Source: an uncultured Myxococcales bacterium (GTDB lineage Bacteria; Myxococcota; Kuafuiibacteriia; Kuafuiibacteriales; Kuafuiibacteriaceae). Taken from it: a stretch of 64,000 bases of DNA. Below are positions 43,802 to 50,721 of this stretch, piece by piece. Under the pieces are notes generated by a model, which searched no databases, was not told where the DNA came from, and saw only the letters and a program-made list of their open reading frames with translations. The position numbers and the translations under genes were made by a program. The first letter of the stretch is position 1, and each line of letters begins with the position of its first letter. Location: assembly GCA_964519665.1 (NCBI GenBank), contig CAZFIV010000022.1, positions 15,716 to 79,715 on the forward strand, given 5' to 3'.

Positions 43802-44320
43802 ATGCAGGCCTCATCGCTCACCACGAGGGATCAGGTGGCGGCGCTCTACCGACGCTACGGGGCGCTCGTGCAGAATCGTTGCCGCTACCTCCTGGGCGAC
43901 CGCGACGCGGCGCAGGATGCGGCGCAGGAGGTCTTCGTGAAGGTGCTTCGCAACCTGGATCAGTTCCGCGGCGACGCCTCGCCCTCCACGTGGATCCTGC
44001 GGATCGCGACCAACCACTGCCTCAACCGGTTGGCCGCTCAGCGAGCCGGCTGGATGTCGAGATTTCGCCAACACGTTCGACACGTCGACGAGGCGGGCCT
44101 TCGCGGCGGCGTCGACCCCGAGAAGGCTCGGTTGGTTCGTCAGATCCTCGGCCGGCTCGACCGGGAGACGCAAGCGGTCGCCGTCCACTACTACGTCGAC
44201 GAGATGACCCAGGACGAAATCGCGGCTCTGATCGGGCGTTCGTTGCCCACGATCCGCAAACGGCTGGCAACCTTTCGGCGGGTCGCGCGCAGGGAGATCG
44301 GCGATGGCGCCTTCGAATGA
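43802..44320 (+). CDS. ECF (group IV) sigma-70 family RNA polymerase sigma factor
   Basis: Region 2 reads DAAQDAAQEVFVKVLRNLDQF...STWILRIATNHCLNRL. Region 4 reads MTQDEIAALIGRSLPTIRKRLATFRR. The ATG at 43802 is preferred over the GTG at 43775. Confidence 0.85.
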   Translation: MQASSLTTRDQVAALYRRYGALVQNRCRYLLGDRDAAQDAAQEVFVKVLRNLDQFRGDASPSTWILRIATNHCLNRLAAQRAGWMSRFRQHVRHVDEAGLRGGVDPEKARLVRQILGRLDRETQAVAVHYYVDEMTQDEIAALIGRSLPTIRKRLATFRRVARREIGDGAFE

Positions 44321-45155
44321 CCGGGCGCGGCTGCACGAGCTTCGCCGGCTGGCTTACGGGGAGCTCGACGTCGAGGCCGAACGGGCGTTGAGACGTCGCC
44401 TCGAATCGAACCCCGAGGCGTCGGTTCGCCTGCGCCAGCTGATGGACGAGGCGACCGAGTTCGAACGAGTCGAAGCGTCCGTCGACGCGTTCAGCGCCGC
44501 GGTGCTCGAACGCCTCGAGCGCTCCGACGACCAGCCCCCTCCTCGAGCCGCCTCCGCGCCGTGGGGGCTCGCGCACGCCTTGAGGCCACCGAAGATCGTC
44601 GGATGGGCCGTGGCCGCGGCCGCCGCGATGAGTCTGTGGCTGGTGGTCGCGCCCGAGGCACCCGAGCCGGGCGTGCGCACCAAAGGCGGCCGAGAGAGCT
44701 CGCCCCCGGCCGGCGAGGCGCAGTGCGCGCAGACGCCGTGCCCGCACCTCGAAATGTTCGTCAAAGACCACGATGGGATCCGCCCAGGGCTCGACGGGGT
44801 TCGACTCCGTGACGGCGACTGGGTTCAGTTCCGCTATCGAGCGTCCGGGCACTCGCACCTGTTCGTGGTCTCGCTGGACGATGACGGGGTGCTGACCCCG
44901 CTGTATCCCGACCACTTCGGGTCGAGCGTCGTCATCCGGTCCGAAGGCCGCCACGTGTTGAGTGGGAGCATCATCCTCGACGACGCGATCGGTCCCGAGC
45001 GGATCTACGCCTTCTTTTCGGGGCACCCTCTGTCCTTCGAGGAGGTCGAGCGGGCGATGGATTCGATCGTCGACCCCGAGCACGAAGCCCGAGTTGCTGG
45101 GCTCCCCCGAGGCGTCGACCAGGTGAGTATTTTGATCCACAAGGTATCTCCGTGA
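44304..45155 (+). CDS. Putative anti-sigma factor: cytoplasmic helical N-domain, single TM, periplasmic beta-rich C-domain
   Basis: It overlaps the sigma gene by 17 nt. An AGGGAG RBS lies upstream. The TM helix is IVGWAVAAAAAMSLWLVVA. The C-terminal domain (FRYRASGHSHLFVVSLDDDGVLTPLYPD...) resembles domains that co-occur with caspase-like proteins. Confidence 0.6.
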   Translation: MAPSNDRARLHELRRLAYGELDVEAERALRRRLESNPEASVRLRQLMDEATEFERVEASVDAFSAAVLERLERSDDQPPPRAASAPWGLAHALRPPKIVGWAVAAAAAMSLWLVVAPEAPEPGVRTKGGRESSPPAGEAQCAQTPCPHLEMFVKDHDGIRPGLDGVRLRDGDWVQFRYRASGHSHLFVVSLDDDGVLTPLYPDHFGSSVVIRSEGRHVLSGSIILDDAIGPERIYAFFSGHPLSFEEVERAMDSIVDPEHEARVAGLPRGVDQVSILIHKVSP

Positions 45156-49455: not shown

Positions 49456-49515
49456 GGGTCACATTTCCCAGGCACGCGAAGTTTTCAGCGATTAACCTTT
49501 CTAGGGAGGCTGTGG

Positions 49516-50721
49516 GTGGTGACGAACGATCCGATGGCGCGCGAAGTCCAGGGCCCACCCCGCCGGCGCTCCGTCGGCCGAGCGCCTGACTACGACGTCG
49601 TCGTTGTGGGGGCCGGTACAGCCGGGCTGGTCATCGCGCTCGCACTCGGACGGAAAGCAGGCTTGCGGGTCGCCGTCGTCGACCATCCGCCGGCGCTGCG
49701 CCTGGAGACGCAGGAGCAACTGTGCCCTCGTTCATGTCAGGTGCTCGAACGGCTCGAGGCATGGCGGGCGTTTTTGGTCGAGCACCACGTTCGCGCCATT
49801 GCGCGCAGAAGCGGCGGGGCGGCGGAGCGGGCCACGAACACCTACATCTACGATCCAGAGCAGATCGGATGGACGGTCGATCGCTTCTGGTTGAACGACC
49901 TGCTGCGCCGAGAAGTTCGTCGCCACGGCATCATCGTCGAGCCGCAGCTGGTGCTCGTCGGCTTCGATGAAGCGCGCGGCCTCCTCGTTCAGCGCGATGA
50001 CGGCGCGACCATCTACGTCACGAGCGCCTTCGTCGTCGACGCCAGCGGCTTGAATTCTTGCTATGCCCGCCTGCGCGGCGCCCACCGGCGGATCATCGAT
50101 CCTCTCGTCGCGTCCACCGTGACCTTTCAACGCCCTACGCCGCCCCCGGACTCGACCCCGACCGAGGCGTGGTCCCAAGGCTGGTGGTTCGTAGACCAAC
50201 GGCCCCGCGGGCAGACCCTGGTCAGCTGCGTGACCGATCCCGAGGCCATCGATGCCTTGGGCCTGGCGTCCCTGAACCTGTGGTGGGCTCAGCTCGACCA
50301 AACCGACCGGGTTCGTCGCGACATCGCCGACGCGTGGGCGTGCTCGACCCCGATCGTGCACGCCGCGAGCTGTGAGCGGCTCGACCGTTTCGCCGGACCG
50401 GATTGGCTCGCCGTCGACGACGCCGCGTTCGCCCTTCCTCCTTTGGGTCGACCTGGGGTGGCCCGAGCCATCATCGCCGGGGACCGGGCGGCGGCGACGG
50501 TGGGGGCGCACCTCGAGGGCCACCAGCAAGCCTTGGAACAGTACGCTCACGACTTGGAGGCCGAGTGCTCCAAGTACATCGCGACCCTCACCGAGTATTA
50601 CGTTCACGAACGCGATCCGTGGTCGGAGAAGACTTTTTGGCGGCGCCGGCGCTCGTTGTTCGAGCCGCATTCATCCAAAGCCGACGTCGATGGCTTTGCG
50701 CCGCTGCGTCGATCAGGATGA
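49516..50721 (+). CDS. FAD-dependent oxidoreductase / monooxygenase-like (specific family uncertain)
   Basis: A GGGAGG RBS lies 6 nt upstream of the GTG start. The FAD-binding motif is DYDVVVVGAGTAGLVIALALGRKAGLRVAVVD. Confidence 0.65.
   Translation: MVTNDPMAREVQGPPRRRSVGRAPDYDVVVVGAGTAGLVIALALGRKAGLRVAVVDHPPALRLETQEQLCPRSCQVLERLEAWRAFLVEHHVRAIARRSGGAAERATNTYIYDPEQIGWTVDRFWLNDLLRREVRRHGIIVEPQLVLVGFDEARGLLVQRDDGATIYVTSAFVVDASGLNSCYARLRGAHRRIIDPLVASTVTFQRPTPPPDSTPTEAWSQGWWFVDQRPRGQTLVSCVTDPEAIDALGLASLNLWWAQLDQTDRVRRDIADAWACSTPIVHAASCERLDRFAGPDWLAVDDAAFALPPLGRPGVARAIIAGDRAAATVGAHLEGHQQALEQYAHDLEAECSKYIATLTEYYVHERDPWSEKTFWRRRRSLFEPHSSKADVDGFAPLRRSG

Follow-up and report, generated by a model that had tools for sequence, protein, structure and literature searches.

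We analysed a stretch of DNA of 64,000 nucleotides (nt) from an uncultured Myxococcales bacterium, hereafter called the window, and focused our attention on a run of four overlapping plus-strand genes. They encode an extracytoplasmic function (ECF, group IV) σ factor, a single-pass anti-σ factor, a caspase-like protease of family C14 and a lipoprotein-like protein. The order of these four genes recurs in Myxococcota far beyond chance, and very probably the four together form one functional module. That bases 43706-47742, which comprise the genes and a promoter-like motif in front of them, are one copy of a trans-envelope signalling cassette widespread in Myxococcota, working by the mechanism modelled below, is in our view an evenly balanced proposition. 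We further propose that the protease, a metacaspase with a tether in the outer membrane, serves the inner-membrane anti-σ factor as its dedicated site-1 protease and would cut it at an R-x-K|G motif also found in its own activation loop. This last proposal is a tentative reading, to which we give somewhat less than even probability.

A four-gene cassette conserved in Myxococcota

The σ factor gene of the window occupies bases 43802..44320 on the plus strand (172 amino acids, aa); if translation begins at an in-frame GTG at 43775 instead, the protein has 181 aa. It is followed on the same strand by the genes encoding the anti-σ factor (44304..45155; 283 aa), the metacaspase/orthocaspase-like C14 protease (45152..46762; 536 aa) and the lipoprotein-like protein (46759..47742; 327 aa). 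The σ and anti-σ factor genes overlap by 17 nt, and the next two junctions are a GTGA overlap (anti-σ factor/protease) and an ATGA overlap (protease/lipoprotein). These genes are the first four of seven consecutive plus-strand open reading frames (ORFs) in the ORF list of the window. All seven are present at the positions given by an earlier first-pass annotation of this DNA, and the overlaps and the three short gaps further downstream that it had described are exact.

The same annotation had suggested a comparative search for neighbourhoods that combine an ECF σ factor, a DUF4384-like anti-σ factor and a C14 peptidase. This search was performed as a profile-guided scan of one genome per species, which yielded 560 confirmed relatives. 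The best 80 loci were examined, and their neighbourhoods were compared by tblastn with the seven window proteins. The arrangement proved to be conserved: the order σ factor, ~260-aa anti-σ factor, C14 protease and ~310-aa lipoprotein recurs in ~70 species-level Myxococcota genomes, at caspase identities ranging from 36% to 70%. Where the flanking sequence is long enough, a σ factor homologue almost always lies directly upstream of the caspase, with an ORF of ~260 aa and one transmembrane helix between the two, and a lipoprotein homologue is located directly downstream of the caspase in the examined loci. Exact 4-nt stop/start overlaps join the anti-σ factor and caspase genes in 42/70 loci and the σ and anti-σ factor genes in 51/70.

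Two forms of the cassette were observed. The window and 22 other loci have the four-gene form, and in 44/71 loci a second lipoprotein paralogue precedes the σ factor gene, giving rise to a five-gene form. This additional paralogue is typical of Myxococcaceae-type loci (e.g. locus L003, 5735-6682), and its stop codon lies 10-140 nt upstream of the σ factor gene. We also looked up two distant metagenomic representatives of the anti-σ factor; both are found in the order σ factor, anti-σ factor, caspase, with 4-nt overlaps. Full-length homologues of the protease number more than 1444 and are nearly all labelled Myxococcota or 'Deltaproteobacteria'. The relatives retrieved include Myxococcus, Corallococcus, Archangium and Anaeromyxobacter.

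The σ factor and its anti-σ factor

The product of the first gene matches TIGR02937 with 74.1 bits (cut-off 42.9), and the Pfam domains Sigma70_r2 (PF04542) and Sigma70_r4_2 (PF08281) were both detected above their cut-offs. Its nearest solved relatives in a PDB comparison are SigW and σE.

The anti-σ factor of the window gave weak matches only (DUF4384, E = 0.004, sub-threshold; NF052375, E = 0.003), and a PDB sequence search with the anti-σ factor profile returned no match. Among 21 orthologues, 19 match DUF4384 (best 1.9e-7), in agreement with the type of periplasmic domain that the first-pass annotation had recognised, and two match the anti-σ zinc finger zf-HC2. An exhaustive profile search retrieved 4258 cluster representatives of the family at E<=1e-10, and the motif HxxxCxxC is present in the N-terminal part of 98/131 full-length representatives with a transmembrane helix. 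According to the alignment, the zinc ligands have been lost in the window protein. Because its relatives carry HxxxCxxC, zf-HC2 and DUF4384, and because distant ones keep the gene order, the assignment as an anti-σ factor stands, and binding and inhibition of the σ factor are its predicted functions. The pairing of the two proteins, which had been claimed from their adjacency, is thus backed by the ZAS motif and zf-HC2 of relatives as well as by the frequent 4-nt overlap of their genes.

The alignment assigns residues 1 to ~97 of the anti-σ factor to a cytoplasmic domain. A hydrophobic transmembrane helix follows (residues 98-116, bases 44595-44651) and then, after a short periplasmic linker, a DUF4384-like β domain delimited by the Pfam match (residues 168-239, bases 44805-45020). 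A possible homology between the lipoprotein and the anti-σ factor was rejected (hhalign probability <1%).

The protease is predicted to combine a caspase fold with an outer-membrane barrel

Peptidase_C14 (PF00656) matches the third protein with 48 bits against a cut-off of 21.4. Its AlphaFold2 model has a mean predicted local distance difference test (pLDDT) score of 80.6, with values mostly >90 in the barrel and <50 in the loop 150-176. Four parts can be distinguished in this model: a signal peptide (residues 1 to ~24, modelled as an N-terminal helix), a caspase fold (residues 26-240, bases 45227-45871), a β-sandwich (residues 260-346, bases 45929-46189) and an 8-stranded β-barrel (residues 368-534, bases 46253-46753). 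Foldseek matched the N-terminal domain with caspase-6 (E = 1.7e-5, probability 1.0) and, among PDB entries, the barrel with NspA, OmpA, Ail and OmpX (E 5e-8 to 3e-6, target TM 0.64-0.74). The model therefore predicts an anchor in the outer membrane for the protease, formed by a C-terminal 8-stranded OmpA/OmpX-like barrel. The first-pass annotation had described it as a secreted peptidase; the signal peptide agrees with this description, but given the modelled barrel the protein would not be simply secreted. Since both termini of 8-stranded barrels face the periplasm, the catalytic domain should be periplasmic. Homology of the β-sandwich with the DUF4384 domain of the anti-σ factor was considered and discarded (hhalign probability <1%).

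The catalytic dyad consists of His111 (in SGHA, bases 45482-45484) and Cys148 (in DACE, bases 45593-45595) and spans bases 45482..45595. Both residues are invariant in an alignment of 16 diverse homologues and are kept in 80/80 species loci, so that the dyad can indeed be called intact, as had been noted before. Asp146 is located two residues before Cys148, and this D-x-C is likewise invariant in the alignment; in addition, an acidic SQESD block is conserved in the relatives of the protease. Asp146 and the SQESD block would fit an acidic S1 pocket of the kind seen in metacaspase structures. Characterised metacaspases and orthocaspases cut after Arg or Lys (PMC6426788, PMC3501461).

Protease and anti-σ factor share an R-x-K-G motif

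The sole invariant feature of the periplasmic linker of the anti-σ factor is R125-x-K127-G128, which reads R-T-K-G in the window (44676..44687) and begins 8 residues past the transmembrane helix. R-x-K-G is found <=45 residues after the helix in 56/70 species loci, and the remaining 14 loci have near variants such as NRIKS, TRLKA and NLTKG. Of 131 independent anti-σ factor representatives, 90 also have the motif, with a median distance to the helix of 11 residues, and KG or R-x-K is retained in a further 37.

The protease contains the sequence T154-R-L-K157-G158 (45611..45625), of which T154, R155, K157 and G158 are invariant in the alignment of 16 homologues. This loop has the form (T/N)R.KG in 78/80 loci, and KG is kept in the other two. 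In the AlphaFold2 model, the motif is part of the low-confidence, disordered loop that starts two residues after the catalytic Cys. The loop after the Cys is the position of activating cleavage in caspases.

From the shared motif, the Arg/Lys specificity of metacaspases and orthocaspases and the invariant D-x-C, we infer that the protease would process itself at TRxK|G, a proposed autoprocessing or autoinhibitory site, and would cut the anti-σ factor at the matching site between K127 and G128. Because the motif is common to both proteins, the anti-σ factor is a testable candidate substrate of the protease; cleavage by the caspase at R-x-K|G is in our estimate nearly, if not quite, an even call. 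The first-pass annotation had placed the caspase-like protein where a site-1 protease for the anti-σ factor would be expected. The conserved motif in both proteins speaks in favour of this placement, while the cleavage event itself is a proposal.

A conserved promoter motif in front of the cassette

An ECF promoter of the type AAC-N16-17-CGT, which the first-pass annotation had suggested to look for upstream of 43775, is absent, and the canonical G[GT]AAC-N15-18-CGT was found upstream of the σ factor genes in 0/68 loci. Instead, another bipartite promoter-like motif, TTTC-N19-GTC, is present on the plus strand at 43706..43731 (window sequence TTTCTTTCTGTCTCGCCTGCGCGGTC), 71 nt upstream of the ATG at 43802. 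This motif occurs upstream of the first gene of the cassette, which is the lipoprotein paralogue or the σ factor gene depending on the architecture, in 43/71 loci, compared to 1.4 expected from its rate elsewhere in the same loci. Columns outside the search pattern are conserved as well, as seen from the extended consensus cTTTC.gTTTt...GC.GTGTCcAT, and the strict pattern TTTC-N17-GTGTC gave 48 matches across all loci, 43 of which are cassette promoters. All five loci of the window clade have a T-run followed by C, a spacer of 19 variable nt and GGTC. The loose pattern shows no enrichment when the window is taken by itself (7 matches versus 9.2 expected), and the significance of the motif therefore comes only from its conservation across loci. 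A first dyad count for the promoter was discarded, as most of its signal came from coding sequence, namely that of the lipoprotein paralogue upstream. Taken together, the comparison supports an ECF-type promoter of the operon's own and probable autoregulation, with the motif presumably being recognised by the σ factor of the cassette.

Extra copies of the strict pattern TTTC-N17-GTGTC are located downstream of the caspase gene in locus L058 (~8548) and of the lipoprotein gene in locus L063 (~7331), a hint that some species may have internal promoters or regulon members next to the cassette. Furthermore, the block GGTGrAACGATGTGA is conserved just upstream of the σ factor ATG in the five clade loci (window 43773-43787; L005, L085-L087). 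If GTG 43775 is the start, the block belongs to the longer ORF and encodes x-R-C-E/D; otherwise it would be a leader element with an ATG-TGA start-stop pair.

The fourth gene encodes a lipoprotein-like protein

The assignment of the fourth gene is based on an alignment, the tblastn survey and an AlphaFold2 model. The lipobox Cys at residue 17 is conserved in the homologues, as are two further invariant Cys residues, and neither Pfam nor NCBIfam gave a match. In the model (pLDDT 68), a long helix is followed by ~13 strands. In light of its strict co-occurrence with the cassette and its frequent duplication, a role as a gate, sensor or inhibitor would be our guess. The window protein contains 0 Lys, which we considered as a possible sign of protease resistance; this idea was dropped, since the family has a mean Lys content of 3.2%.

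A model for protease-dependent σ factor release and its alternatives

The proposed mechanism can be summarised as follows. By homology, the cytoplasmic domain of the single-pass anti-σ factor would hold the ECF σ factor at the inner membrane, and its periplasmic part would consist of the DUF4384-like β domain on a short linker. According to the structural model, the metacaspase-like Cys protease would be tethered to the outer membrane by its C-terminal barrel, with the catalytic domain in the periplasm. In response to an envelope signal, for which the co-encoded lipoprotein(s) would probably act as sensor or gate, the protease would be activated at its own T-R-x-K|G loop. The activated protease would then cut the anti-σ factor at (N/T)-R-x-K|G, ~11 residues outside the membrane. 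By analogy with other pathways, the remaining stub of ~11 residues would be removed by an RseP-type site-2 protease encoded elsewhere, leading to release of the σ factor, which would transcribe its own operon from the observed TTTC-N19-GTC motif together with a further regulon.

Physiological roles and substrates have been established for few bacterial caspase homologues. If the mechanism is true, it would provide the first defined physiological substrate for bacterial C14 orthocaspases, and a caspase-fold enzyme anchored in the outer membrane would join the few site-1 proteases of regulated intramembrane proteolysis. It would also represent a new trans-envelope principle, in which enzyme and substrate sit on different membranes and the spacing or integrity of the envelope may be read via the lipoproteins, and the large uncharacterised set of DUF4384 anti-σ proteins collected above (4258 representatives) would gain an annotation. 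The cassette offers a candidate substrate, a candidate scissile motif that enzyme and substrate share, a candidate promoter read-out and culturable hosts (Myxococcus, Corallococcus, Archangium).

A number of observations weigh against this mechanism or parts of it. With respect to the shared motif, the probability of a four-residue match by chance was estimated as ~0.005 for the loop after the catalytic Cys and as ~0.1 for the whole protease. At the variable x position, no covariation of the two proteins is seen (13 matches versus 13.9 expected). The barrel is a prediction, and Pfam searches with the isolated β-sandwich and barrel segments gave no match. The window protease ends with ...GVSIGVIP and thus does not have the terminal aromatic residue of the β-signal; the C-terminal consensus of the family in the alignment is ...VGY plus two variable residues. 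The predicted periplasmic orientation of the caspase domain is derived solely from barrel topology. Moreover, the promoter site of the window departs from the family consensus in the -10 region, and the lipoprotein has no recognisable fold, with no PDB fold match at E<0.09.

The missing covariation would also fit a different role of the protease, namely as an output of the pathway and not as its transducer. The σ factor would then be released by another protease or by a conformational change, the protease and the lipoprotein would act on other envelope substrates, for example in remodelling, development, predation or cell death, and R-x-K-G of the anti-σ factor would be the site of another, trypsin-like protease or a structural feature. 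The protease gene lies downstream of the σ factor gene in an apparently autoregulated operon and hence would be a regulon member anyway, many ECF operons carry effector genes, and a survey from 2012 discussed the metacaspases of M. xanthus as possible autolysis enzymes (PMC3501461). We nevertheless regard such an output role as unlikely: the adjacency of the anti-σ factor and protease genes is near-universal and comes with exact 4-nt overlaps, the same rare motif is found at functionally suggestive places in both proteins, and DUF4384 recurs with caspase-type proteases elsewhere (PMC6426788; bioRxiv 10.1101/2022.08.17.504292).

Alternatively, control could run in the opposite direction. DUF4384 and the R-x-K-G linker would then keep the protease inactive as a pseudosubstrate, or position it as a docking partner. 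The cassette would chiefly control protease activity across the periplasm, and σ factor release would be secondary. Autoinhibitory linker lysines are known from plant metacaspase 4. A motif common to both proteins would be in line with this arrangement, as would the frequent fusion of DUF4384 in cis to protease domains (bioRxiv 10.1101/2022.08.17.504292; PMC6426788). A pseudosubstrate is, however, expected to lose its scissile geometry, yet K-G is the best-kept part of the motif, and the ZAS-type N-terminal domain argues for σ factor control as the primary role of the anti-σ factor. We therefore judge this reversed control to be improbable.

Neighbouring genes downstream of the cassette

Three further plus-strand genes follow the cassette. 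The first, 30 nt behind the lipoprotein gene, encodes a thioredoxin (Trx)-like protein of the VPGUxxT family, type 2 (47773..48819); after a gap of 39 nt it is followed by the gene for a stand-alone HD_4 protein (48859..49455; 198 aa), and 60 nt further downstream begins the gene for a flavin-dependent monooxygenase, which is LodB/GoxB/QhpG-like or halogenase-like (49516..50721; FAD_binding_3, NF038171).

The exported Trx-like protein matches NF041383 with 336.2 bits (cut-off 275), contains a Thioredoxin_7 domain and has the Cys form of the motif, VPGCSTC. The first-pass annotation had regarded it as a Trx-MsrA fusion, of which the Trx part holds. The MsrA likeness is confined to an HCFW stretch that covers positions 2-33 of the 153 positions of the PMSR profile and corresponds to a PDB MsrA match of 36 residues, and thus does not amount to a full PMSR domain. 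The HD protein matches PF13328 with 61.5 bits (cut-off 27.2) and contains HDVLED; TIGR00691 matches its N-terminal region, and it has no synthetase domain. It is a stand-alone RelA/SpoT-type hydrolase domain akin to small alarmone hydrolases, with (p)ppGpp hydrolysis as the predicted activity. The flavoprotein scored 142 bits versus a cut-off of 400 (NF038171), 135 versus 400 and 113 versus 240 against the LodB/GoxB/QhpG families, and its nearest PDB entries are a flavin-dependent halogenase and a peptidyl-tryptophan dihydroxylase. No lodA-, goxA- or qhp-like gene for a partner quinoprotein is adjacent to it in the window. It thus appears as an orphan of the protein-tryptophan-modifying maturase family LodB/GoxB/QhpG, with sub-threshold matches.

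All seven genes had been read in the first-pass annotation as a regulon for envelope and oxidative stress, with caspase-like signalling as the trigger of Met-sulfoxide repair, of (p)ppGpp hydrolysis as an alarmone-degrading output and of the flavoprotein. This reading is not supported by the comparison of loci, and we give it little probability. The genes are indeed on one strand with gaps of 30-60 nt, no σ70-type promoter and no convincing terminator were found in a scan of 43400-51500, and three related metagenomic contigs preserve the run of seven. But homologues of the Trx, HD and flavoprotein genes adjoin the cassette only in the window clade (L005, L085-L087). Outside this clade, the only one of the three seen directly behind the cassette is an HD gene in locus L009; no flavoprotein homologue is adjacent, and a Trx homologue occurs at a distance of 2-6 kb in three loci. 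Within the clade, synteny extends to the flanking nrdAB, dtd and SLT genes. Because these housekeeping flanks are equally conserved, the linkage of the three genes cannot be distinguished from general synteny, and the limited MsrA likeness likewise speaks against the seven-gene reading.

A further point in favour of the seven-gene reading was a two-Cys insertion (C-x4-6-C-P) found in most anti-σ factors of the clade right after R-T-K-G (44688-44750, residues ~129-149), which is absent from the rest of the family. A redox link between this Cys pair and the Trx gene was considered and rejected, as the anti-σ factor P0128 does not have the pair and still keeps the Trx neighbour. Based on the gene neighbourhoods, we consider the Trx, HD and flavoprotein genes to be clade-specific neighbours and no part of the conserved cassette, even though they may be co-transcribed with it in the window lineage. 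They should not be taken as parts of the system.

The seven-gene run is flanked by the divergent nrdA/nrdB genes upstream and the convergent dtd gene (D-Tyr-tRNA deacylase) downstream. The 3' ends of the flavoprotein and dtd ORFs overlap by 9 nt (50713-50721); for dtd, the longest ORF has 204 aa and the gene caller product 151 aa. In the intergenic region between nrdA and the σ factor gene (43573-43624), there is an inverted repeat made up of the AT-rich half-palindromes CAACACCAGATATAG and CTATATCTTGAGCTG, ~32 bp from centre to centre. It resembles an NrdR box pair in front of the divergent nrdAB operon. The 5' coding end of nrdA on the minus strand (43327-43456) contains a tandem repeat with a period of 9/18/36 nt (6.2 copies of 18 nt, 88% matches). 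In the encoded protein, the large subunit of class I ribonucleotide reductase, this repeat gives an N-terminal (A-D/N-V) run before the ATP-cone. An Rfam scan of the whole window found no family at gathering score.

Comparison with known systems

The cassette is real, widespread and has been noticed before, yet it is uncharacterised. Asplund-Samuelsson et al. (2012) reported that 4/5 metacaspases of M. xanthus DK1622 are encoded in predicted operons with σ70-family factors and found the same σ factor/metacaspase operons in Anaeromyxobacter, Haliangium and Sorangium, as a co-occurrence only and without a mechanism (PMC3501461). The window cassette is the same kind of operon. That survey did not include an anti-σ factor assignment, an outer-membrane barrel, a lipoprotein, a cleavage motif or a promoter (PMC3501461), and in our literature search we found no publication that describes the barrel of the protease, the R-x-K-G motif common to both proteins or the promoter of the cassette. 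The count for M. xanthus implies several such cassettes per Myxococcota genome.

One described system that links a caspase-type protein to a σ factor is DdvS/DdvA of M. xanthus. DdvA is a single-pass ZAS-type anti-σ factor for a Myxococcota ECF σ factor, with a juxtamembrane linker and a periplasmic caspase-superfamily His-Cys module, here a TPR-CHAT part fused to the anti-σ factor itself, which has been proposed as its own site-1 protease; truncated DdvA was shown to be RseP-dependent (PMC11506125). The CHAT module of DdvA would act within the dimer, whereas the window encodes a separate C14 protease with a predicted anchor in the outer membrane, and the anti-σ factor of the window has a DUF4384-like periplasmic domain and no TPR. 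More generally, ECF54 σ factors are tied to CHAT proteins by genomic context (PMC8999054).

A second precedent is the craspase of type III-E CRISPR systems, whose caspase-like protease Csx29 has RseA-like Csx30 as its substrate; the C-terminal domains of one Csx30 group belong to DUF4384 (bioRxiv 10.1101/2022.08.17.504292). Both this system and the window cassette thus combine a caspase-family protease with an RseA-like σ-binding protein that is cut in a flexible linker, a cleavage that is proposed in our case. Craspase frees the ECF-type σ factor RpoE/CASP-σ; it is cytoplasmic, RNA-guided and CRISPR-linked, and its protease Csx29 is a TPR-CHAT protein (bioRxiv 10.1101/2022.08.17.504292), whereas the window protease belongs to C14 and no CRISPR genes are nearby.

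Since both of these caspase-linked σ systems are related to defence (PMC11506125; bioRxiv 10.1101/2022.08.17.504292), with DdvS controlling a CBASS/CRISPR island, and since the best NCBIfam match of the protease, although below cut-off, is the 'EACC1-associated' caspase type of conflict systems, an anti-phage or conflict system in which the protease and the ECF σ factor switch on defence genes was also considered, but this is highly improbable, because PADLOC matched 0/7 window proteins, the surveyed neighbourhoods contain no defence genes, the locus lies between ribonucleotide reductase and D-Tyr-tRNA deacylase genes in conserved synteny, and the cassette is near-universal and vertically conserved across Myxococcota.

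The overall layout also resembles the σE/RseA/RseB/DegS/RseP and SigW/RsiW/PrsW/RasP pathways, with a single-pass anti-σ factor for which we propose a site-1 cut near the membrane followed by a site-2 cut, and with a gene for an accessory periplasmic protein in the cassette. In those pathways, site-1 cleavage is carried out by an inner-membrane PDZ serine protease or by PrsW, whereas the candidate of the window is a caspase-fold Cys protease tethered to the outer membrane. Pfam detected no trypsin or PDZ domain in the window cluster, and the lipoprotein has no RseB/LolA-like fold match. With FecI/FecR/FecA, the cassette shares the three layers of an outer-membrane barrel, an inner-membrane anti-σ factor and an ECF σ factor. 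Unlike in that system, the window has no TonB-dependent transducer or FecR domain (Pfam/NCBIfam), and its 8-stranded barrel carries a protease.

The cassette thus resembles the DdvA, craspase and σE/SigW pathways but belongs to none of them, because it lacks a PDZ serine protease, an RseB-like fold, a fused CHAT domain, CRISPR genes, FecR and a TonB transducer. If the proposed mechanism is true, it would unite the precedents of DdvA and craspase-Csx30 under a general scheme that pairs caspase-type proteases with σ factor release.

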